Below the pieces are notes generated by a model that saw only the letters and a program-made list of their open reading frames with translations, searched no databases and had not been told where the DNA came from. Source: a virus. From it: a DNA stretch of 64,000 nt. The DNA lies in the IMG/VR virus record IMGVR_UViG_3300045988_173816, positions 32,001-96,000 of that record, one strand, 5' to 3'. Both the position numbers and the translations under genes were made by a program. Positions 3,617-60,922 of this stretch are shown piece after piece. How positions within the stretch are numbered: the first letter of the stretch is position 1; every line of letters begins with the position of its first letter.

Positions 3617-3641
3617 CATTTCACTTAGTTTGTGCTATACT
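3613..3641 (+). promoter_or_regulatory. near-consensus sigma-A promoter with extended -10
   Basis: TTGACA (3613-3618), 17-bp spacer, TGcTATACT (TATACT at 3636-3641). It reads into a 1.3-kb ORF-free region. Confidence 0.65.
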
Positions 3642-3647
3642 ATTTAT

Positions 3648-4602
3648 TGTTGGTTGGTAATCGTTTGTGAATCTAACTTTAGTGATCGGTTGGATGATTT
3701 GGATACTTCACAACGATAAGGCTTACAGTTTGTGAAAGGACTGTAAGTCGTAGGTGTCTTACGACACCGAAAGACGTTTCAAATGAACTTCTTTTCTTTT
3801 TCGGATTTAGGACTGTCGAAGGTTCTAGGTTCGTAGGTGAGTTATAGTTCACCTAACGATTAGGGTTCATGTTTGAACCTCTAGTTTTATTTTGCGTAGG
3901 TACTTGTGAAAGGGTATCTATGCATAAAGTTGCTTCATTTATAGGTTGTAACTTTAGTTAGACATAAAAGTAAAACATGATAAGACTGAAATAGTCTTGG
4001 ATTGTATAGAGGGTAGTTGCAGTCGCCTCAACTCCGACTCTTGTGCAGTACACTGCACAAGAGTAAGGTGAGAAACAACATTAGTTGGAAACTTTAATTT
4101 TGTTAAGCAATTAAAGAACTGTTTCGTCTAATTGGTTTTCTGGATAATTTGCGTGATTCAGAAATACTTCCTTTCTATTTATTTTTGGCTTGCAATCTGT
4201 GATAGGATTGTGAGTCTTAGAAACCTATAAAGTTTCTAACTTACGTTTAAAAACGTTAAGTTCACCTTATATTATTTTGCTAGGTTACAGATTATAAAAG
4301 GTCTGTAGCTTATAGAAACTTTTAGGTTTCTTAACGTTCCTACGTGGTAGGTTCTCCAAATATTATTCTAGGTTGCAAATTGTCAAAGGTTTGCAACTTA
4401 TAGAAGCCTTTTGGTTTCTAAAACAATGATTTGATTCGTTGTTCATCGTTCTTCTTTAATTTAAATGGGTTGTAGACTGTCAAAGGTTTATGACTCTTAG
4501 GTAACATTGTTACCCTACTGTACCGAACTATCGGTACCTTTTAGACTGTCGAGATGATAGGCGAAACCAATGAATAGAACACTTTTCTTAAAGTGCTTTT
4601 TC
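3648..4602 (+). ncRNA. candidate large structured non-coding RNA (or ssDNA hairpin array)
   Basis: No ORF of 60 aa or more on either strand between 3617 and 4911. At least 8 stem-loops share the loop TGTSAAAGG. The region is bounded by the promoter at 3613 and the terminator-like hairpin at 4580-4602. Confidence 0.4.
4187..4540 (+). repeat. four tandem 90-97-nt three-hairpin modules
   Basis: Modules start at about 4187, 4281, 4371 and 4468. Each is GGYTRCArA-loop(TGTxAAAGG)-complement, then TAGAAAC..GTTTCTA, then a third hairpin, separated by AT-rich linkers. Confidence 0.7.
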
Positions 4603-4612
4603 GTTGGTTTTT
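4562..4612 (+). terminator. nested hairpin terminator candidate
   Basis: Inner stem CACTTT-tctt-AAAGTG followed by CTTTTT. Outer stem AAACCAA / TTGGTTT followed by TT. Confidence 0.5.
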
Positions 4613-4843
4613 AAATACGGCTGAGAAGTCGCATAATTGGTTTTATAAGATTACCTCAAAAGGCTAGAATTGTTGTTAAACTAAGGTCTTAAGTAAATTT
4701 GTTGGTGGTTTGATTTTGGTTATCTTAGTAACTCTTCTTTAAAATTTGTTACACGCTAGTTTATCTAGCTTCTTTAAATACTAAATAAACTAAAACAGAA
4801 AGCTTTACAAAAGAAATAGACAGTTTGCAACAGTTCGGTTAAT

Positions 4844-4898
4844 TGCTAAGAAAATGCTTAAATAATGCTAAGAAAATTGCTAATTATTGCTAAGAAAA
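4844..4898 (+). repeat. five 11-nt direct repeats TGCTAAGAAAA in the leader of the 4912 gene
   Basis: Copies at 4844, 4855 (variant), 4866, 4878 (variant) and 4888, ending 4 nt before the GAGGT RBS. Confidence 0.75.
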
Positions 4899-4911
4899 AT
4901 TGAGGTAAAAC

Positions 4912-6288
4912 ATGGTAAAAATCGATCTAAATCAAATCTCTGCTGAACAAATGGCTCAAATGCAACAAGTGTTGGCTAAAGACACTGCGGGAGCTAAACG
5001 TTCACCACTTACTGAGCTTGGTGAAGAGCTTGGAATTCAAATTTTCAACCGTGCCAAAGACGGTTACACAAACCAAAAACTCTTGGTTTACATTCCTCGC
5101 ATGGGGTATCCTACTGTTGATGAAAAAGGTGACTTGATTCCGTTCCGTGTTCCTATGCGTAGCGTAACAATGAAAGCCTTCAACAACGGTGATTCTAAGA
5201 GCAACTGGAAAGGTTCTATGCCTTACTTTGAAGAAGCTAAAGAAGAGAACCGTATCTTTGCACCTTGGGGTCAATCAGGTAACAATGAGTACCTTCGTGA
5301 CTACATTAGTGCTGCATTTGACATGCGCCGTGCGAAAATTGAGCTTGAAGTAGCTCGTCAAGGGTATTCTTCTGTTGCTGAGTTGGTTGCAAACGAACCT
5401 CAGTACAAAGAAGAAAAAGACTTCACTAAAACGTTTATGGAATATGTGTTCTTGCAAGTTCAAAGTAACTCAGACATGTGGTTCCCAATCGTAGTGATTC
5501 CTACTAAAAAGGATGCTCATGGTAAGTTCACAACTACACCAGAAACAAAACCTTTGCTTGATGAAGATGGAAACCCAACTTCTGTGACGAAACCAATTCC
5601 ACGTATTGACAATTATGGGAAACCTATTTGTGATAACGATGGAAACCAATTGTTTGAGGAACGTGTCTTTGCTCACACGATTGAAGGCGAATTGAAGTGG
5701 CATAAACTCACTACAAAAGCTTTCACTGAAAAATTGGTGAAAGCCCTAGAGTTGCAAGCACAACAACCGGGTATCACTGAGCTTGGTGGGTTCTTCGTTC
5801 TCTTCAATTATGAAATTGACGAGAAAGCTCTTGAAAAAGCGAAGAACAACGGTGGTGCTGCTTACGAAAGTGAAGATTCTAAGTCAGGTGCTTCATTGAA
5901 TATTCAAGTTATGCAAAAAGTGGCTCCGTTCACAGACTTGTACGACTTGACTGAGTACCTTGGTCTTCAAGAGCAGTGGGATAAAGAAGCGCAAGCTCAC
6001 TACAACGCTCTTCATCTTGTACAGACTGTTCGTGCTTGTGAATTGCTTTCTGACGAAGAGGTAAATGACAAGCTGGATAAATTGTATGGTGGACTTGAGA
6101 AAGTGAAAGCTGAGATTGAAAACATTCAAGCGACTGCTGAAAACCTTAAAAAAGGTGTAGCAGCAGGTGGTTCGACTAACCATATCGCTAATTCTGCAGC
6201 TAACCGACTAGGTGCTAACGCTGGTCAACTTCCTCCAGGTGTGGATGTTGACCCAGCAAGTGCTTTGGATTTCGGTGCTGACGAATAA
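4912..6288 (+). CDS. hypothetical protein, possibly an ssDNA-binding-type replication protein
   Basis: 458-codon ORF with a good RBS (GAGGT). It has an acidic C-terminal tail ...DPASALDFGADE of the kind seen on SSB/gp32/gp2.5-type proteins. The function is speculative. Confidence 0.55.
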   Translation: MVKIDLNQISAEQMAQMQQVLAKDTAGAKRSPLTELGEELGIQIFNRAKDGYTNQKLLVYIPRMGYPTVDEKGDLIPFRVPMRSVTMKAFNNGDSKSNWKGSMPYFEEAKEENRIFAPWGQSGNNEYLRDYISAAFDMRRAKIELEVARQGYSSVAELVANEPQYKEEKDFTKTFMEYVFLQVQSNSDMWFPIVVIPTKKDAHGKFTTTPETKPLLDEDGNPTSVTKPIPRIDNYGKPICDNDGNQLFEERVFAHTIEGELKWHKLTTKAFTEKLVKALELQAQQPGITELGGFFVLFNYEIDEKALEKAKNNGGAAYESEDSKSGASLNIQVMQKVAPFTDLYDLTEYLGLQEQWDKEAQAHYNALHLVQTVRACELLSDEEVNDKLDKLYGGLEKVKAEIENIQATAENLKKGVAAGGSTNHIANSAANRLGANAGQLPPGVDVDPASALDFGADE

Positions 6289-41525: not shown

Positions 41526-41822
41526 ATGATAGAATTAAAGAAAATTAAGAAAGCTCTACAAGTTCTCGGTTTTGAAGGTGTTGTAAAGGTAGACCAAGCG
41601 AGTTTAAAACAAGCTTACAAAAAGCGCTCTAAAGAGGTTCACCCAGATATTGGAGGTGGTTCTCACGAAGCGTTTAAAGAGCTACAAGAAGCTTATGACT
41701 TGGTTTTAGCACACGGTTTAGGTAAGACTATTGATTTAGTAACTAGAGAGGTTCTAGTTACACAAGGTTCAGATTTACTGCGGTATCATCTCGCGGGGCG
41801 AGAATATAATTGTAGAGTATAA
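41526..41822 (+). CDS. stand-alone J-domain protein
   Basis: LKQAYKKRSKEVHPDIGG...FKELQEAYDLV carries the HPD tripeptide in J-domain helix II/III context. Only 98 aa. Confidence 0.7.
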   Translation: MIELKKIKKALQVLGFEGVVKVDQASLKQAYKKRSKEVHPDIGGGSHEAFKELQEAYDLVLAHGLGKTIDLVTREVLVTQGSDLLRYHLAGREYNCRV

Positions 41823-41837
41823 GAGAGGTTTTAGATT

Positions 41838-42116
41838 ATGAAATTTGTAAATAAGTGGAACTTACCACTTTTGGTATTATCAGTTACTATGGGGCTTACT
41901 GCTATTGCAGTTCTAGTAACCTTTGTTTTACGTCTAGTAGGGGTTACTACTATTGATATTATCACAGTGACTATTCCTTTAGGTGTTGTCGTAGTTCTCG
42001 TTATTGCTTGGGCTTTTGTTTTGTTTATCTATTCTAAAGTTAGCCACAAAGGTTTCTTAGACGACAACGGTTCAACTTATGAAAGTGACTTTGAGTCAGA
42101 TGATGGGTGGGAATAA
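41838..42116 (+). CDS. small membrane protein
   Basis: Two TM segments and an acidic C-terminus. Confidence 0.5.
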   Translation: MKFVNKWNLPLLVLSVTMGLTAIAVLVTFVLRLVGVTTIDIITVTIPLGVVVVLVIAWAFVLFIYSKVSHKGFLDDNGSTYESDFESDDGWE

Positions 42117-42256
42117 TGGTCTTTATATTTTTATTTTTATTTTTATTGGTTGGTTGTTCGATGCTCGCGTATGATTTATATACTGCGCCAAATGTAGATA
42201 CTTACTTTTCGAGAGAGTTTGTAGACTTTGAATTTAAAATTTTTACGCATAAATAA
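42116..42256 (+). CDS. possible 46-aa lipoprotein
   Basis: MVFIFLFLFLLVGCS has the lipobox LVGC. TAATG overlap with the previous gene, followed by a terminator. Below the track cutoff. Confidence 0.4.
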   Translation: MVFIFLFLFLLVGCSMLAYDLYTAPNVDTYFSREFVDFEFKIFTHK

Positions 42257-42264
42257 TTGGTTTT

Positions 42265-42295
42265 GAGGTTGTAGAAAGCTACAACCTCTTTTCTA
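42265..42295 (+). terminator. rho-independent terminator
   Basis: Stem GAGGTTGTAG-aaag-CTACAACCTC followed by TTTTC. Confidence 0.7.
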
Positions 42296-42560
42296 TTTTC
42301 TAAAACGCACCAGATTGCCCTAGATTTAATTTTAACCTCGTTTGGTACAATAAGTCTAACTTTAATTTTAAATGCGACACGGAGCAAATGAGAGCTTTTA
42401 AATTTGATTTTAGGGAAAATATCTTCAGTTCGGTTTTGAGACTTAAGTTCATCCATCAGTCCTCCTAACGGTATCTTCATTTTCTTGACTTTTGTTTAGT
42501 TTATCTATTTTTCTCCCTTAATTCTTTTATTTAGGTTTACGAAAAGTAGTAGTTATGATG

Positions 42561-42978
42561 TGTCATAACTATTTTTATTTTTGTCATAGCTTTTAGAAAT
42601 TGTGTCCTAAAAATAAGTTGTTTTGTCATGAGCTTGTCCTAATTGTCTTAAAATTTGTCATAAGGTTATTTATTTTTGTCATAAATCTATTCAAATTTGT
42701 CATAATTCTATTTAGAATTGTCATAAAAACAGTTTTATTTGTCCTAACTTTAGTTAAAAGTGTCATAGAGTGATTACATTTTGTCCTAAATCTTTGCTTG
42801 TTTGTCATAAAATACTTAGATTTTGTCCTAAATTTACTCAAAGGTGTCATAGAATAGTTTATTTTTGTCTTAACTTTAGTTATACTTGTCTTAATTTGAG
42901 GGTTGTTTGTCATACCTCTCTTAAATTCTGTCCTAATTTAGTAACTAATTGTCTTAAAAGACTTTAAATTGTGTCATA
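42561..42978 (+). repeat. array of 22 direct iterons, core TGTCMTA, 21-bp phasing
   Basis: Cores at 42561, 582, 603, 624, 635, 644, 656, 677, 698, 719, 740, 761, 782, 803, 824, 845, 866, 887, 908, 929, 950, 972. All are in the same orientation. Spacing is 21 bp, with 9-12-bp steps (a half-period register shift) between 42624 and 42656 and a final 22-bp step. Confidence 0.9.
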
Positions 42979-43274
42979 CCTTTTTCAAGGTTGTGCATGA
43001 TGTTTTTGGTTTGCGATGTTGGAACGCCCTAATTCCGTAAGGATTTGGTGGCTTTCTATTTGGGTTTGTGTTGATTTGATTTAGTTGCATTGGTTTGATG
43101 CTTGAGGTTTGGTTTTAAGTAAGTAGTTTGAACTTCAGTACGATTAAGTAGAAGCGTATGATTGATTCAACTCTCGACAAAATCAAAACGGACACCAAGC
43201 CTTTGCGGTATCTTAAGTCTACGTGCGTTTCTAACTCAGTTCTCATTTCTGATTAGCTTTTGGAGTAATTAAAT

Positions 43275-43330
43275 AGCAGAAAGCAGAAAGCAGAAAGCAG
43301 AAAGCAGAAAGCAGAAAGCGGAAAGCAGAA
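43275..43330 (+). repeat. heptanucleotide tandem repeat (AGCAGAA) x8
   Basis: Eight contiguous units, the seventh reading AGCGGAA. Located in the non-coding ori-like region. Confidence 0.9.
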
Positions 43331-43505
43331 CCTCATTTTTAAACTTCTGTTTTCTACTATTAAAAGCACTCCCCAACCTCCCCATTCGGTATCTAAGATT
43401 TTACTTTTTCTTTATAGTAAATCCAACTTCAGCTAAAATTATTTAATTTAGTCTAAAAATGATGAACTTATCGTAGTATAGTTTAGATTTTGTACATTTT
43501 ATTAC

Positions 43506-43534
43506 TTGATTTTTAATTTAAAATAATGTATAAT
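43506..43534 (+). promoter_or_regulatory. sigma-A-type promoter
   Basis: TTGATT, 17-bp spacer, TATAAT (43529-43534) preceded by TG. AT-rich surroundings. Confidence 0.5.
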
Positions 43535-43676
43535 AAACCTTAAGAAATTCAGCAAGGAAAAATTCTAGTTATAGGACTAGGTTTCAGACTGAAAATTTTA
43601 TAGAAAGGATAAAGTACAGAAAAGTTGAATGATTTATTTTGTACTTATACATTAAATCATAGAATAGTAGTTTTTT

Positions 43677-44438
43677 GTGTGGTTTTTAACTTTTATGGGT
43701 AAAAAGAAACCGATATTTAATACTTTAAATCAGATTTATTCTGATATTACTTTGTTTCAAACTCGACTGGAAAATAATAAACATATTCCTTCTAGTTCGG
43801 TCTTACAAACAGTAGAGGACTTGCAATTTGCAAAAACCCTTGTCGATTTTTTGAAGAGTGGTTCTTATTTAAACTTGAGTAAATCAAATGAAGAAAGCAC
43901 TCGTAGTCTTTTGAAATTATATCGATCAGGACTCAATCGCAAACAACTTGCAGACCTTTCAGGTTTGACTCCTCGTCAAATTTATTATGCAAATTTGAAG
44001 GTTGAAGAAAGTCTTGAATCGAGGTTTCCGACAGGCTTATTGAGTCTTTGGAAGAACCGCCAATTTCAAGTGATTGAGGAGTATTTACAGGTCAATTCTG
44101 ATGACCTTTCTTCTATTATAGAAGAAATTTTAGAGTTTCCTTTAGTACAATTTGCTCCAAGATTGTTAGGTCAGCGTACAAGTGAGCTTTACCGAGTAGA
44201 TTTGATTAAAGAGAAGTCAAAAGAAGAGATTATAGAAGCTCTTGAAAAAGTCTTAGAGATGGAGAAACGGGTTACGCAAACTTTACTTGAAAATCTTGAA
44301 GATATTAAGGTTTGGGGTTCACTCACTCGGTATCTGACCTTGAATAAAACCTTTCCTGCAGACTTGGTTTTGGAACTTCAAAAGAAGAACTTTCCAAACC
44401 TAAATACAGTTGAGTTTGAAAGGGTCGAGGGTGTTTGA
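43677..44438 (+). CDS. hypothetical protein with HTH-like segment (candidate initiator/regulator)
   Basis: First gene after the iteron region. LNRKQLADLSGLTPRQIYYA looks like an HTH. The start is uncertain (GTG 43677 or ATG 43695, neither with a clear RBS). Confidence 0.5.
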   Translation: MWFLTFMGKKKPIFNTLNQIYSDITLFQTRLENNKHIPSSSVLQTVEDLQFAKTLVDFLKSGSYLNLSKSNEESTRSLLKLYRSGLNRKQLADLSGLTPRQIYYANLKVEESLESRFPTGLLSLWKNRQFQVIEEYLQVNSDDLSSIIEEILEFPLVQFAPRLLGQRTSELYRVDLIKEKSKEEIIEALEKVLEMEKRVTQTLLENLEDIKVWGSLTRYLTLNKTFPADLVLELQKKNFPNLNTVEFERVEGV

Positions 44439-45682
44439 TTATGGTTGATAAATACACGATAGACTCTCCATATAAAGCTCTCTATTGGTCTTTCTACAAC
44501 ATTGCTTATAGTGAGATTTACAAAACTACCCCAGAGTTCATACCAACAGTTCCTTTTGAGCCAAGCGCTCTCAGTAAACTAGATGGGTATCCCTATGTGA
44601 GCACGGCTTCCGCTCGTAAACTTATAGTTTTAAAAGAGACAGTTGCAGCAGTTCCTCCAAGTTATGATTACCGTAGATTGTTAGCGCATTTTGAAACAGT
44701 AGTTGAGCAGTTTAGGGTGTCTAGTTCATCCTTTGTGATAACCGAAGAGAATTACACTTATTTGAAACCTAGCAACTACCCCTACCAACTCTCGTATAGC
44801 TTGGTGGTCTTGTGGTTTGCAATTTACCTTGATGTGATTGTAGGGGACTTTCATCTAAGTGTGAAAGGTTTGTCATCAGAGTTAGCAGAGTCTAGTATTC
44901 TTTACTATTTCAAGCTCTTTGAGTATTTACCGATTGAATACGATTTGAGTGCGAAAGATATAGACACGATTAACAGTCAGTTATATGTTGAGATGGCTCG
45001 TTTTCATGGCTACATGAACAAAGAGGTTTTACCTATTTCTGAGAAGCAACGACTCTTTAAAGAGCAAGGGTATCAGGAAGGTTCGATCGTTTTTCTCTAT
45101 GAGAAAGGTTATGTAGCAAACGAAGAGGTTCGCAGTAGCAAAGGTACTAATAAGTTCATTAGTAAGGTACATTTAGCTAAGATTACTAAGGTTACAGACA
45201 CTGAGGTTCAGTTTCATACTTACAATGTGTATAAGACGCGAGAAGGTTTGTTAGAAGATTTTGAAAGTCTACCAGAGTCTATTCAAGAATTATACGGTAG
45301 CTACGTTGAGTTTTTAGAACCTTCTTTAACTGTTAGTCGAGTAGAAGTAGGTTGGGATACGTTAGGCGTGAACTACGCTCAAACAAACAATTCGGTCTAC
45401 GCAGAACATTATTTCATTACTAAAGTTGAGTCGGTTTATTCTGTACCAATTACAGTTTTAAATGAGAACTTGTACTTTGAAACAACTGTTTTACCAGTAG
45501 AGGTTGCTACTCTATTTTTATTGCTGTCTTATCATATTCCATTTGATGAAGATTTGTACCAAAAGCAGTATTCCGTAGAGGTTTCTGAGATTCAGGAGAG
45601 AGTATCCTTTTATACCTCGCTACTGGAAGAAAAGCTAGGTTATGAACTTCAAGACTTTTGTAAAGTTAAAGAACTTTACTAG
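44435..45682 (+). CDS. hypothetical protein
   Basis: 415-codon ORF with a 4-nt overlap with the previous gene. Confidence 0.55.
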   Translation: MIMVDKYTIDSPYKALYWSFYNIAYSEIYKTTPEFIPTVPFEPSALSKLDGYPYVSTASARKLIVLKETVAAVPPSYDYRRLLAHFETVVEQFRVSSSSFVITEENYTYLKPSNYPYQLSYSLVVLWFAIYLDVIVGDFHLSVKGLSSELAESSILYYFKLFEYLPIEYDLSAKDIDTINSQLYVEMARFHGYMNKEVLPISEKQRLFKEQGYQEGSIVFLYEKGYVANEEVRSSKGTNKFISKVHLAKITKVTDTEVQFHTYNVYKTREGLLEDFESLPESIQELYGSYVEFLEPSLTVSRVEVGWDTLGVNYAQTNNSVYAEHYFITKVESVYSVPITVLNENLYFETTVLPVEVATLFLLLSYHIPFDEDLYQKQYSVEVSEIQERVSFYTSLLEEKLGYELQDFCKVKELY

Positions 45683-57779: not shown

Positions 57780-57819
57780 CCCACTTAGCGGTATCCTCAT
57801 TTTGAGGGTGCTTTTTATT

Positions 57820-57983
57820 TGTCTCAAATTCTCTATCTTCTGTCTTAACTTTCTTCCGATTTGACTTACCATTTAGTCTTTCTGTCTTATTTTTAGTTAA
57901 ATATGTGTTAAATCCTTCACTACTTGTCCTACTTCTAAACTTATTTGTCCTATATTCATTTTTCTTGTCATACAGTTGTCATA
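57820..57983 (+). repeat. second iteron array (9 copies, core TGTCMTA and variants, 21-bp phasing)
   Basis: Cores at 57820, 57841, 57862 (TGACTTA), 57883, 57904 (TGTGTTA), 57925, 57946, 57966, 57977. Same orientation as the 42.6-kb array. Ends 5 nt before a -35 box. Confidence 0.85.
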
Positions 57984-57987
57984 AGAT

Positions 57988-58016
57988 TTGCAAAATCCTT
58001 TAAAATCTGCTATACT
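57988..58016 (+). promoter_or_regulatory. sigma-A promoter with extended -10, abutting the iterons
   Basis: TTGCAA (57988-57993), 17-bp spacer, TGcTATACT (TATACT at 58011-58016). Confidence 0.65.
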
Positions 58017-58052: not shown

Positions 58053-59612
58053 TTGGACTTACAAAACTATACACTAAAGGGTGTTGACTTAGCTAAACAA
58101 GTGTTAGCAAATGGCTTAGCAAGAGGATATCCTATAGTTCTCAAAGGCGACCCGGATGTTGACGGTTTGTGTGCTTGGTACGTAGGAGCTAAGATATTGC
58201 AGAAAGCAGGTTATTCTTTCCACTCTTGTGTCAACACAGATAGAAGACACGGTATGATCGAAGAAGAACTCGTCAAGAAAGGGCGTAGTTGGGGGCAGTT
58301 TGATTATTACATCCCTACAGAGTACCACCAAAATGAGATTATTATTAACGTAGACTCTTCTATTTCGGCAGAGGAGATGTTACAGTTGACTCAACAAGGG
58401 AATTTTGTCATTAGCTTAGATCACCATGAAGTTGAAAGCAATCCTATGTTCCCAAACCAACAGTATTGGTCTACCACAGAGGAAACAGGAGAAGGGGTAT
58501 CCCTCATTGGTGAAGCGGTTTTAATCAATAACCAATATGATTTTGAACCTGAGGAGCTTAGATTTTGGTCAGGAACGGGAGTTGTTTTAAATGCTTTATC
58601 AAAGATTTTAGAGGTAGAGATTGAAACTGAGTGGGTCGCAATGCACGGTGTCACTTTGCTTTCTGATGTACGAGCTATTGAAAATCCTTTAGCAAGAGAG
58701 ATTTTAAAGGTAACTTTTGAAACTCCTTTAGTTCAAATGCCAGTATTGAGGAAATTAGTCAATGTGTGTCAAGCCGAAGTTCCTACTGCTTTTCAGAGGT
58801 TCCCTGAGAAGTTGGATAGAACTTTCGTGGACTTTAGCTTGTCTCCTTACATTAACGCTTCGTATCAGTTGAATTTGAGTGAGTATTTGTTCAGATTGTG
58901 TATTCAAACAGATTTCTTTTATTCACTTCCAGCTAAGACTATACGAACTCGTATTTTGAACCACATGAAAGATTATCTGAAGGTCACAGAGCTTGAAAAC
59001 TTGGTTATTTTAGCGATTGATGTAGCAGAGATACCAGAGACTTCTGACTCGAAAGAGTATAACTTTAAGTATACTTCTTTCCTTGGTCTGATTGCGAACC
59101 AATATTTGAGAGATTTAGGGAAAACTGTTTTGATTGCAGCAGTTGAAAAGGGTAAGTGGCTCAGAGGTTCTGTTCGTGGTTTTCATTCGGATGTAGAGTA
59201 CAGAGAGTTTTTTGAACATCACAACTTTGATGCACAAGGTCATAAAGGTGCGTTTGGTTTGGTTTCTGTTAAAGGTGCTATAAACTTCCCTCAGTTAGAT
59301 AAAGACCTCGGTATCCTCGAAAGTGGTGCAACTCAGCAAGCTTCGAACATTCATGTAATGTCGAATTTGTTGGCGAACTTTGATAAATTGAAAGAATTAG
59401 CTTATGAAAATGAGTTTTTATTGAGTTCTCATTTTCATTCTATCTCATATAGTGGTTTAGCTTATTCTACGTTTACAGAATCGGCTAAAAAGAGAGGTTA
59501 TGAAGTGGATGGAATGTTTGTTGATTCGTTCGACAAAGAGTTGAACCCTAAAAACGCTTTGATTGTTCCTTATTTATATGGCGATGAATTGAAGTTGATA
59601 TTGAGAAAGTAG
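58053..59612 (+). CDS. RecJ-like DHH/DHHA1 phosphoesterase
   Basis: IVLKGDPDVDGLCAW (DxDG), VISLDHHEV (DHH), GHKGAFG (DHHA1 GGGH-like). The track start 57945 lies inside the iterons and promoter. TTG 58053 downstream of GGAAAGGAG is preferred, but the exact start is uncertain. Confidence 0.7.
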   Translation: MDLQNYTLKGVDLAKQVLANGLARGYPIVLKGDPDVDGLCAWYVGAKILQKAGYSFHSCVNTDRRHGMIEEELVKKGRSWGQFDYYIPTEYHQNEIIINVDSSISAEEMLQLTQQGNFVISLDHHEVESNPMFPNQQYWSTTEETGEGVSLIGEAVLINNQYDFEPEELRFWSGTGVVLNALSKILEVEIETEWVAMHGVTLLSDVRAIENPLAREILKVTFETPLVQMPVLRKLVNVCQAEVPTAFQRFPEKLDRTFVDFSLSPYINASYQLNLSEYLFRLCIQTDFFYSLPAKTIRTRILNHMKDYLKVTELENLVILAIDVAEIPETSDSKEYNFKYTSFLGLIANQYLRDLGKTVLIAAVEKGKWLRGSVRGFHSDVEYREFFEHHNFDAQGHKGAFGLVSVKGAINFPQLDKDLGILESGATQQASNIHVMSNLLANFDKLKELAYENEFLLSSHFHSISYSGLAYSTFTESAKKRGYEVDGMFVDSFDKELNPKNALIVPYLYGDELKLILRK

Positions 59613-59701
59613 AACTTAGGTTATTTTCAAAAATTTGAAAATTCCCTTTGAATTTAAGATTTATTTTCAAGAAACAAGAAATAGAAAGAAATGGTGTAGA
59701 A

Positions 59702-60922
59702 ATGACACAAGTAAAATTGATGGTTGATTTAGGAAACTCAGAAACACGCGCAGTAGCACAAATTGTGGAAGAGGGTATCGTCAAGCACACAAGAGGTTAT
59801 TTGCTTGATAACCACTTTGTAGTAGAGAATTTAGCAACTAAAGAGATGTATTCTCCTTATATCCAGTCTGAGGAATTCAGTAAGTTAGACTCTAATATTT
59901 TTGAAGTTTCTCTACAAGTAGGGGAGAAAAAATTTGATAAATTGGTCATGTGGGGTGATTTAGCGACTGCCAACTTACCTAAGAAATTGAGAACGCCAGT
60001 AAGTCATCTAGCAAAAGCTAATAATTTGTTGAATTATGTAGTTCTCATTAACTTGATGGATAAAGTATTAGATTGGGTGAACATGGTTTACCCAACTAGT
60101 TCAAAACAAACTTTATCAAAAGAAGTTCAATTTGATTTAGCGGTATTGACTCCACCAGCTCAAGTTAGTTCTGCTCGTACTATTTTTGAGTCTAATTTAG
60201 TTCGTACATTTAAGTATAAGAATTTGTATGACGGTGTTGAATTAGACTTGAAAGTGAACTCAGTTAAGGTTCTACCAGAAGGATATTCTTCATTTTATTC
60301 AGTCTTTTTGAATTATGCAGATTTGAACCTTCGTCCTCATTATGCAGACTTAGCTTCTCGAAATGTGTTGATTATTGACTTTGGTGAGGGTACTACGGAT
60401 TTAATTGGGGTATCTAGTCAACGATTCCTTGAAAGTTTGAACCATACCATTAAAATTGGTGGTTCTACTATCCTGAGTAAAGTACGTGCATCTGTGAATA
60501 AACGTTTAGGTTTAGATATTCCGATTGCAAGTTTCAAAGATGTGTTGAAAACATGTGAGGTTCAGTATGGTTCAACAATCTATAAGGTTCGAGAAGATGT
60601 AGAACAGGCGATTTATTCGGTTGCTTCGGATATTGCACAAGAGGTTTTCACTTATTTGCGAGGAGCAGAAGTAGAGGTTTCATCCTTTGACCGTTTGTTG
60701 CTTGTAGGTGGTGGGGTTGTACCTAATGGTTCTACAGTTACAATTTCTGATGCTTTGTTGTCTGAGTTGCAAGTAGAACTACCTACCTTAGACTTGGTAG
60801 ATTTGCAATACTTAGAGGAACCAGAGATTGAGGGTATCCCCTTTGACCTTACAAGTCCTCGTTACTTGAATATTCTAGGGTTAATGATTGGTGTAGCTCT
60901 TGCACAGAAAACACAAGGTTGA
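59702..60922 (+). CDS. actin-like segregation ATPase (ParM/Alp family)
   Basis: Phosphate-1 MVDLGNSETR, phosphate-2 LIIDFGEGTTDLIGV, adenosine motif RLLLVGGGV. ATG 59702 or 59720. Confidence 0.75.
   Translation: MTQVKLMVDLGNSETRAVAQIVEEGIVKHTRGYLLDNHFVVENLATKEMYSPYIQSEEFSKLDSNIFEVSLQVGEKKFDKLVMWGDLATANLPKKLRTPVSHLAKANNLLNYVVLINLMDKVLDWVNMVYPTSSKQTLSKEVQFDLAVLTPPAQVSSARTIFESNLVRTFKYKNLYDGVELDLKVNSVKVLPEGYSSFYSVFLNYADLNLRPHYADLASRNVLIIDFGEGTTDLIGVSSQRFLESLNHTIKIGGSTILSKVRASVNKRLGLDIPIASFKDVLKTCEVQYGSTIYKVREDVEQAIYSVASDIAQEVFTYLRGAEVEVSSFDRLLLVGGGVVPNGSTVTISDALLSELQVELPTLDLVDLQYLEEPEIEGIPFDLTSPRYLNILGLMIGVALAQKTQG

Follow-up and report, generated by a model that had tools for sequence, protein, structure and literature searches.

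A helically phased repeat array common to giant one-strand plasmids of oral streptococci and to Bacillus pXO16, a candidate centromere and operator

An array of 22 short direct sites phased at 21 bp, about 420 bp long and located between genes of a 284-kb oral replicon, is a conserved protein-docking site of the giant one-strand plasmids of mouth streptococci and of the Bacillus plasmid pXO16. It most likely serves as the handle of an actin-like segregation machine, a replication origin being less likely. Our preferred reading, held tentatively and at close to an even chance, is that of a parC-type centromere, plus operator, bound by a ParR-like adaptor. Phased iteron and centromere arrays are a known kind of feature; here one is seen in a new form, in giant one-strand plasmids that as a family are poorly understood. 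Elements of the pXO16 type span 240-350 kb with nearly all genes on one strand, and with this array a concrete and conserved cis-acting element can for the first time be proposed for their maintenance. Its period, not its sequence, was common to uncultured giant plasmids of oral streptococci and to a cultivable Bacillus plasmid. Neither centromeres nor origins usually have such a geometry (a short site at every second helical turn, 14-24 of them per array, and a sister array at the promoter of an expanded actin-like operon), and three uncharacterised protein families accompany the array.

The window, i.e., the whole 64-kb stretch of DNA analysed, corresponds to bases 32001-96000 of a 284,026-bp contig (G+C 35.8%), a circular element whose contig ends share a 56-bp overlap. 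The main array (Table 1) consisted of 21 exact TGTC[A/C/T]TA cores and one TGTCATG (at 42624), all on the + strand. Exact search for TGTCHTA within 42561-42978 returned 21 matches on the + strand and none on the - strand, with about 0.1 expected by chance for a stretch of this size; over the 64 kb, both strands together gave 44 matches, compared with 32 +/- 5 in shuffles. Steps between cores were 21, 21, 21, 11, 9 and 12 bp, then 14 times 21 bp, then 22 bp. The register shift at 42624-42656 added up to 32 bp (11+9+12, equal to 21+11), which is one extra helical turn, so that all sites stay on one DNA face. Base-identity autocorrelation reached 0.50-0.56 at lags of 21, 42 and 63 bp (mean 0.32), and the main array was the top-scoring non-coding tandem repeat of the replicon (TRF). 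The array is real, far beyond chance, and the number, orientation and phasing of its iterons, with the register shift and the last 22-bp step, agreed with what the earlier note had read from the sequence. Information in the units, estimated from 157 distinct units pooled from close (clade A) relatives, was limited to (T)TGTC-H-TA(A), the remaining 13 bp being merely A/T-rich.

Clusters of TGTCHTA occurred at two places only in the whole 284-kb replicon: the main array and a nine-unit sister array at the promoter of a ParM-like (par) operon, in line with the recurrence 15 kb away that had been noticed before. The sister-array cores read TGTCTCA, TGTCTTA, TGACTTA, TGTCTTA, TGTGTTA, TGTCCTA, TGTCCTA, TGTCATA and TGTCATA; two of the nine units were degenerate, and the last steps were 20 and 11 bp. 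The sister array began directly after a terminator hairpin and ended 5 nt before the -35 box; phased direct repeats that abut the par promoter in this way are the hallmark of parC and occupy the very position of a type II centromere/operator. Sites 11 bp apart were present in both arrays (42624/42635 and 57966/57977), implying that the reader tolerates one-turn spacing. The main array lay 14.8 kb upstream of the par-operon promoter, not adjacent to the par genes, with about 25 genes in between. No alternative repeat able to serve as centromere of the par operon was found near it.

Table 1. Features at and around the two arrays, in window coordinates
Feature	Position	Strand	Remarks
J-domain (DnaJ) protein, stand-alone, 98 aa	41526..41822	+	two genes upstream of main array
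Terminator-like hairpin	42265..42288	+	intrinsic type; closes upstream gene block
Conserved non-coding stretch	42296..42470	+	ends at a GGTATC copy; contains extended -10-like box
Main array	42561..42978	+	22 direct (T)TGTCHTA(A) sites, 21-bp steps; direct motif search
HTH-gene promoter TTGATT-17-TATAAT	43506..43534	+	inside 80% A+T block 43400-43720
HTH protein P0001, 247 aa	43695..44438	+	probable start ATG 43695; candidate array binder
P0002, 415-aa partner	44435..45682	+	stop/start overlap with HTH gene; uncharacterised family
Sister array	57820..57983	+	9 units, same core, 21-bp phase; motif search, kept in relatives
par-operon promoter TTGCAA-17-TGcTATACT	57988..58016	+	5 nt past last sister-array site
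RecJ-like DHH phosphoesterase	58053..59612	+	operon gene 1; probable start TTG 58053 after AGGAG
Actin-like ParM-type ATPase	59648..60922	+	Pfam, PHROGs, PDB, tblastn
Coiled-coil protein, 437 aa	60932..62245	+	between ATPase and adaptor genes
ParR-like adaptor candidate, 276 aa	62242..63072	+	operon's last gene; sequence pattern

The first gene of the operon matched PF01368 and phrog_2484, with TIGR00644 below threshold. Judged by its matches, the actin-like gene encodes a bona fide ParM-type ATPase: PF21522 was recovered above cut-off (E 1.3e-9), phrog_691 ('partition protein') at E 1.4e-21, and ParM chains of the PDB at E 7.7e-8 (7x3h) and E ~1e-7 (7x54), along with pSK41 ParM (3js6). The NCBIfam ParM match was sub-threshold only, and tblastn matched the protein to the ParM/StbA of pXO16. 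The last gene encodes the candidate adaptor, with a strand-helix-helix N terminus, about 130 conserved N-terminal residues, a variable acidic linker, and a conserved end of 14 residues with the C-terminal peptide PLVDTxALMxAF. Its 60 N-terminal residues were about 93-100% identical between clades, identity over the whole protein going down to 59%. The protein had no Pfam, NCBIfam or PDB match, and its putative RHH did not align with CopG; what stood of the RHH fold proposed in the earlier note was therefore the strand-helix-helix pattern, not any database support.

Protein-guided scans recovered three IMG/VR contigs and 47 metagenome loci, 27 of the latter having enough upstream DNA for array analysis. 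The main array was found at the same place in all 27 (oral elements of three clades) and in two of the three IMG/VR contigs, the third (L002) having too little upstream DNA to show one. The BNJ* contigs, long-read assemblies with much noise (steps of 22-24 bp, broken ORFs), were set aside. In clade A, whose 415-aa protein was about 92% identical to that of the window, arrays had 18-24 units, with an 11-bp half-step after unit 3 or 4 and a single step of 22 bp towards the end, in many cases the final one. Clade B (415-aa protein about 73% identical) had 13-15 units and clade C (about 61%) 14-17. Across clades A-C neither the TGTC[A/C/T]TA core nor the 21-bp step ever changed, whereas the inter-core DNA had diverged, a pattern diagnostic of selection for helical phase and for a word contacted by protein. 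Sister array and promoter were kept in all relatives checked (clade B, L079-L081, and two clade A relatives), and its two promoter-proximal sites, CTTGTCATACAGTTGTCATAAGATTTGCAAAA, were almost invariant across them.

According to the preferred reading, the N-terminal domain of the ParR-like adaptor would contact a (T)TGTCHTA(A) site at every second helical turn, always from the same side of the DNA. On the 9-site array the adaptor would cover the -35 region of the par promoter and set the levels of all four proteins of the operon; along the 22 sites of the main array it would build a long one-sided nucleoprotein filament or ring, whose conserved C-terminal peptides would capture the ends of ParM-like filaments, and the sister 284-kb plasmids would be pushed apart. 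The centromere reading draws on the restriction of the same core, orientation and 21-bp phase to two loci, one of them 5 nt from the par -35 box, on the retention of sister array and promoter in clade B and two relatives of clade A, and on a par operon lacking any other candidate repeat. Variability in unit number (14-24 among close relatives) also favours it, since centromeres commonly vary in this way and copy-control iterons seldom do. Any protein binding the nine sites must bind the 22 identical, identically spaced ones as well, and the near-invariant adaptor N terminus parallels the invariant core across clades A, B and C. From this we infer that the ParR-like protein is the reader, through a putative RHH N terminus, and that the large array acts in partition. 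The earlier note had proposed a replication origin or a type II or III partition centromere; the type II reading, with an operator, gained support from the sister array kept at the par promoter and from the ParM-type ATPase.

A close likeness was seen to the type II parC/ParR/ParM systems of R1 and pSK41, where direct repeats are likewise phased by whole helical turns and abut or overlap the promoter of the actin-like ATPase operon, with a downstream gene for a small adaptor that ends in a conserved peptide (here the ParR-like candidate). ParR tolerates one-turn spacing at R1 parC, where sites lie 11 bp apart (PMC2241845), as in the 11-bp pairs found here. Compared with R1 and pSK41, whose units of 11 or 20 bp are contiguous, the present arrays have a single 8-bp site in each 21 bp, and their 22 and 9 sites are distributed over two loci 15 kb apart. 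The operon has two extra genes (RecJ-like and the 437-aa coiled coil), and the adaptor candidate, of about 275 aa, has a conserved N-terminal domain of 130 aa with a putative RHH fold. In pSM19035, the RHH protein Omega, which recognises a 7-bp core, is a single protein acting as global repressor at several promoters and as centromere binder. The heptads of pSM19035 are contiguous, in mixed orientation and 7-10 per site, whereas the cores described here share one orientation and a 21-bp spacing. The RHH centromere binders known so far occupy DNA at intervals of 7-11 bp, not of 21 bp, which counts against the centromere reading, as does the fact that the RHH call has no database or structural support.

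The limits of the non-coding region that holds the main array, earlier placed at 42296-43676, were corrected to about 42257-43694; the next gene probably starts at ATG 43695 and not at GTG 43677. Three GGTATC copies were counted in it (42470, 43208 and 43389) instead of the two mentioned before. Upstream of the array, about 120 nt of conserved non-coding DNA carried an extended -10-like box, TGGTACAAT, at 42338-42346, directed into the array; within 42296-42470, blocks were 88-94% identical to clades B and C, compared with about 68% in the flanks. A minus-strand small ORF with AGGAGG (42300-42452) and a plus-strand 26-codon ORF were rejected as genes, both being unconserved in relatives, and Rfam gave nothing significant over 41800-43800. 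Both arrays were preceded by a (A/G)CGGTATC(T/C)TCATTTT context with GGTATC (42470 and 57790), the context at 57790 being the 5' arm of the terminator hairpin. Downstream, the G/T-rich spacer at 42980-43480, with (AGCAGAA)x8 at 43275-43330, was variable: clades B and C largely lack it, and certain clade A relatives have 9-14 copies of a TGAGGT/AGGTTT-type repeat in its place.

This setting, with the main array between a terminator and the next promoter and a conserved promoter-like element directed into it, would also suit a regulatory or architectural site of the HTH protein that is neither origin nor centromere. The array could, e.g., be a titration sink or silencer setting the free level of a par-operon repressor, or carry a one-sided protein filament that acts as insulator between the transfer/adhesin block upstream and the replication block downstream. 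The presence of two arrays with one core, one of them at a promoter, is in keeping with such a site. However, 14-24 phased sites maintained over the distance from Streptococcus to Bacillus would be a heavy investment for a sink, a design for which we know of no precedent, and exact helical phasing suggests a cooperative higher-order complex; we consider this role quite improbable.

The gene following the array encodes the HTH protein P0001, whose recognition-helix-like segment reads TPRQIYYANLK. The HTH ORF announced 3' of the array in the earlier note did match HTH_7, its single family match, although below threshold (E 0.0019; 18.7 bits against a cut-off of 23.8). The segment L..LSGLT.RQ[IV]YYAS.K was kept in clades A-C, while the pXO16 protein reads ELGISRSFYYKQRK; profile comparison of P0001 with that protein was not significant (E 0.16). 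The AlphaFold model of P0001 was all-helical and poor (pLDDT 52), too poor for a fold search. That of P0002 reached moderate confidence (pLDDT 74) and had no fold match in the PDB or BFVD at E <= 0.001. Neither protein matched a Rep family in Pfam, PHROGs or NCBIfam, or any PDB sequence, and P0002 gave no match of any kind in Pfam, PHROGs or NCBIfam. Exhaustive profile search showed the P0002 family to comprise at least 174 clusters at 50% identity, with members typically of 400-450 aa and the most conserved domain at residues 165-380; none of 46 sampled members carried a Pfam or PHROG domain, and a genome-contig scan with the P0002 profile returned no relatives. A UvrD-like helicase, a RecJ-like protein and a Toprim protein were encoded in the same region as the main array. 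The stand-alone J-domain protein likewise adjoins the array in L078, of clade B, and in L077, of the third lineage described below; in pXO16 it lies 9 kb upstream.

A search of PLSDB with the ParM-like and 415-aa proteins had pXO16 of B. thuringiensis (350 kb) as its sole match, and the same search of phage collections gave none. In pXO16 (B. thuringiensis sv. israelensis; NZ_CP013277.1), an array of 17-18 units with an exact 21-bp period was present at record positions 220198-220640, in a 1.7-kb gap; its core/consensus, GTAACnAnTCTGAAAGTTA, differs from the oral TGTCHTA. It was followed by an HTH-like 205-aa gene, a 407-aa P0002 homologue (WP_001235238.1; 26% identity to the 415-aa protein of the window, E 2e-17) and a helicase and, 20 kb further on, by genes for a RecJ-like protein, ParM, a 583-aa protein and a 269-aa ParR-like protein. 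The third lineage, a Logan contig from SRR31646624, has a degenerate array with a 21-bp period and some 17 units; behind it come a 202-aa gene, a 407-aa P0002 homologue, a UvrD-like helicase, a DHH protein and a ParM operon. The order of array, HTH gene and P0002 was thus kept in three deeply diverged lineages in which P0002 is only 20-28% identical. The period of the array, its place and its neighbours are therefore old, and the word itself is lineage-specific. In the open literature searched, which included reviews of pXO16, neither a description of the pXO16 array nor an experimentally defined origin or centromere for pXO16-type elements was found. For pXO16 replication, these reviews mention hypothetical regions only (PMC6199540).

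At the ParM promoters of pXO16 and the third lineage, no sister array of the main-array type was clearly recognisable, matches in phase there being weak. Matches in phase to each lineage's own array profile also occurred inside the gene after the ParR-like gene (pXO16 record 247722-247990, i.e., L004 24848-25116; L085 19086-19233). They were not counted as sister arrays, since they fall in acidic/Ser-rich coding repeats and a D/E-rich gene scores alike; they may be embedded arrays or a codon-composition artefact of Ser/Asp/Glu-rich repeats. The lack of a clear unit copy at these two ParM promoters weighs against the centromere reading. So do the 15 kb between main array and par operon, together with the tie of the array to the HTH and P0002 pair in three lineages, and the fact that the element has no recognisable replication initiator while the main array is its sole iteron-like non-coding array.

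These same points bear on an iteron-type replication origin, a possible but rather unlikely role in which the HTH protein, with its 415-aa partner, would bind the 22 sites. In such an origin the J-domain protein would perhaps recruit host DnaK, the DNA would be wrapped and the neighbouring A+T-rich stretch opened; replication would run unidirectionally along the gene direction, and the 9-site array would couple par expression or handcuffing-type copy control to the initiator. Spacing and common orientation of the repeats fit well, as 21 bp is the classic iteron period of Rep_3-type plasmids, but only 8 of 21 bp are conserved per unit, unlike in iterons of two-domain Rep proteins, and unit number is highly variable. 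The order of array, HTH gene and P0002 in the oral clades, pXO16 and the third lineage speaks for an origin, although adjacency of the HTH gene is weaker evidence than it appears, since the whole backbone is syntenic. The A+T block, likewise in favour, lies 430 bp from the array and coincides with a promoter, and the spacer leading to it is variable and partly missing in clades B and C. The helicase, RecJ-like and Toprim proteins of the region, the neighbouring J-domain protein and the want of any other origin candidate or Rep gene on the element add to the case for an origin; the absence of DnaA boxes and the failure of P0001 and P0002 to match a Rep family or PDB sequence, and of the P0002 model to match a solved or viral fold, detract from it. 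For the HTH protein as reader, TxRQ[IV]YYAS was kept in the oral clades, which share the core, and is replaced by SRSFYYKQ in pXO16, whose core differs; the missing clear sister arrays at the pXO16 and third-lineage ParM promoters point the same way. Against it, the HTH gene's own promoter, 530 bp away, overlaps no site, whereas the par promoter does adjoin sites. Covariation of core and reader failed as a test, as all oral clades have one core and both candidate readers differ in pXO16. On balance, the origin reading was neither supported nor excluded.

Rep_3/RepA iteron origins (pSC101, F, P1, R6K, pPS10) resemble the main array in having repeats of one orientation, a period of 19-22 bp, an adjoining gene for a DNA-binding protein and A+T-rich DNA nearby. 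Secondary iteron clusters such as P1 incA and F incC can act in control, and DnaJ/DnaK are known activators of Rep_3/RepA-type initiators. The present system differs by having no Rep-family protein, no DnaA box and 3-5 times more repeats, with 8 bp conserved per unit and a second cluster at a partition-operon promoter 15 kb away. Centromere and origin readings are not mutually exclusive. The array with the HTH, 415-aa and J-domain proteins could represent the origin and initiator of a new class of giant plasmids, the pXO16 type, that would replicate unidirectionally and, through the identical sites at the par promoter, would have actin-driven segregation coupled directly to initiation. We regard this combination as unlikely; if true, one DNA word would be origin iteron and centromere/operator together.

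The type III locus of pBtoxis (tubC/TubR/TubZ) shares with the present locus the order of repeat array, small HTH protein gene and larger partner. That module was first described as a minireplicon with iterons, and the literature wavered between replication and partition (PMC6199540; PMC6009700). Its repeats are 12 bp long and seven in number, and P0002 has no tubulin/FtsZ signature or fold; with no tubulin-like protein present, the type III (TubZRC) alternative in the earlier note was not supported.

Composition and gene orientation were uniform around the circle: ORFs of at least 100 aa numbered 259 on the + strand (239 kb) and 22, all short, on the - strand of the whole replicon, and GC skew was positive in every 1-kb bin sampled. 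Neither feature can therefore locate an origin, and the skew analysis of the complete replicon suggested earlier proved uninformative in this respect. No DnaA-box cluster was found in the array region or elsewhere on the replicon, no Rep gene or other origin candidate was found on it, and apart from the main array it had no iteron-like non-coding arrays. Similarity search of 42000-44500 against phage and plasmid DNA collections returned no match; the replicon was co-linear with pXO16 in the region examined. Identity with the Inocles was rejected: in these, the skew switches at origin and terminus and ORF orientation switches too (PMC12340149), and the present replicon has neither switch.

A single site orientation in a replicon of uniform GC skew and gene orientation could also reflect a polar fork barrier or terminus of a unidirectionally replicating circle, which would likewise be a maintenance element. 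In EBV oriP, EBNA1 binds a family of repeats, and the FR/DS layout of a large and a smaller, distant array resembles the two arrays here. The comparison is one of analogy only and no Tus/RTP-like protein was found, which makes a barrier or terminus highly improbable.

Some further observations were made along these elements. In pXO16, the gap before the small genes leading to the ParM operon contained two similar hairpins with CCACCAACCAACCGGTAATCC-type sequence (L004 16504-16816). In clade B relatives (L080 11970-14410, L079/L084), an IS605-family TnpB element and a structured RNA region were located just after the start of the RecJ-like gene, an insertion that separates the par promoter from the rest of the operon. 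L079 was rejected as a natural relative without the par operon, which was found elsewhere on the same contig beside a second TnpB copy. On one 285-kb clade B contig, two TnpB copies flanked TerD/cation-ATPase cargo, unless this is a mis-join. Two array modules per contig were seen on BNJT01000212.1 (477 kb; L028/L054) and BNJV01000389.1 (311 kb; L052/L055), both with many indels, and are probably noisy concatemeric or dimeric assemblies and not real duplications. Finally, a hairpin-rich non-coding region of 1.3 kb at window positions 3617-4911 ended in a 22-bp repeat (ATTGCTAAGAAAA.., 2.6 copies) before the gene at 4912, and is possibly a structured RNA or a regulatory leader.
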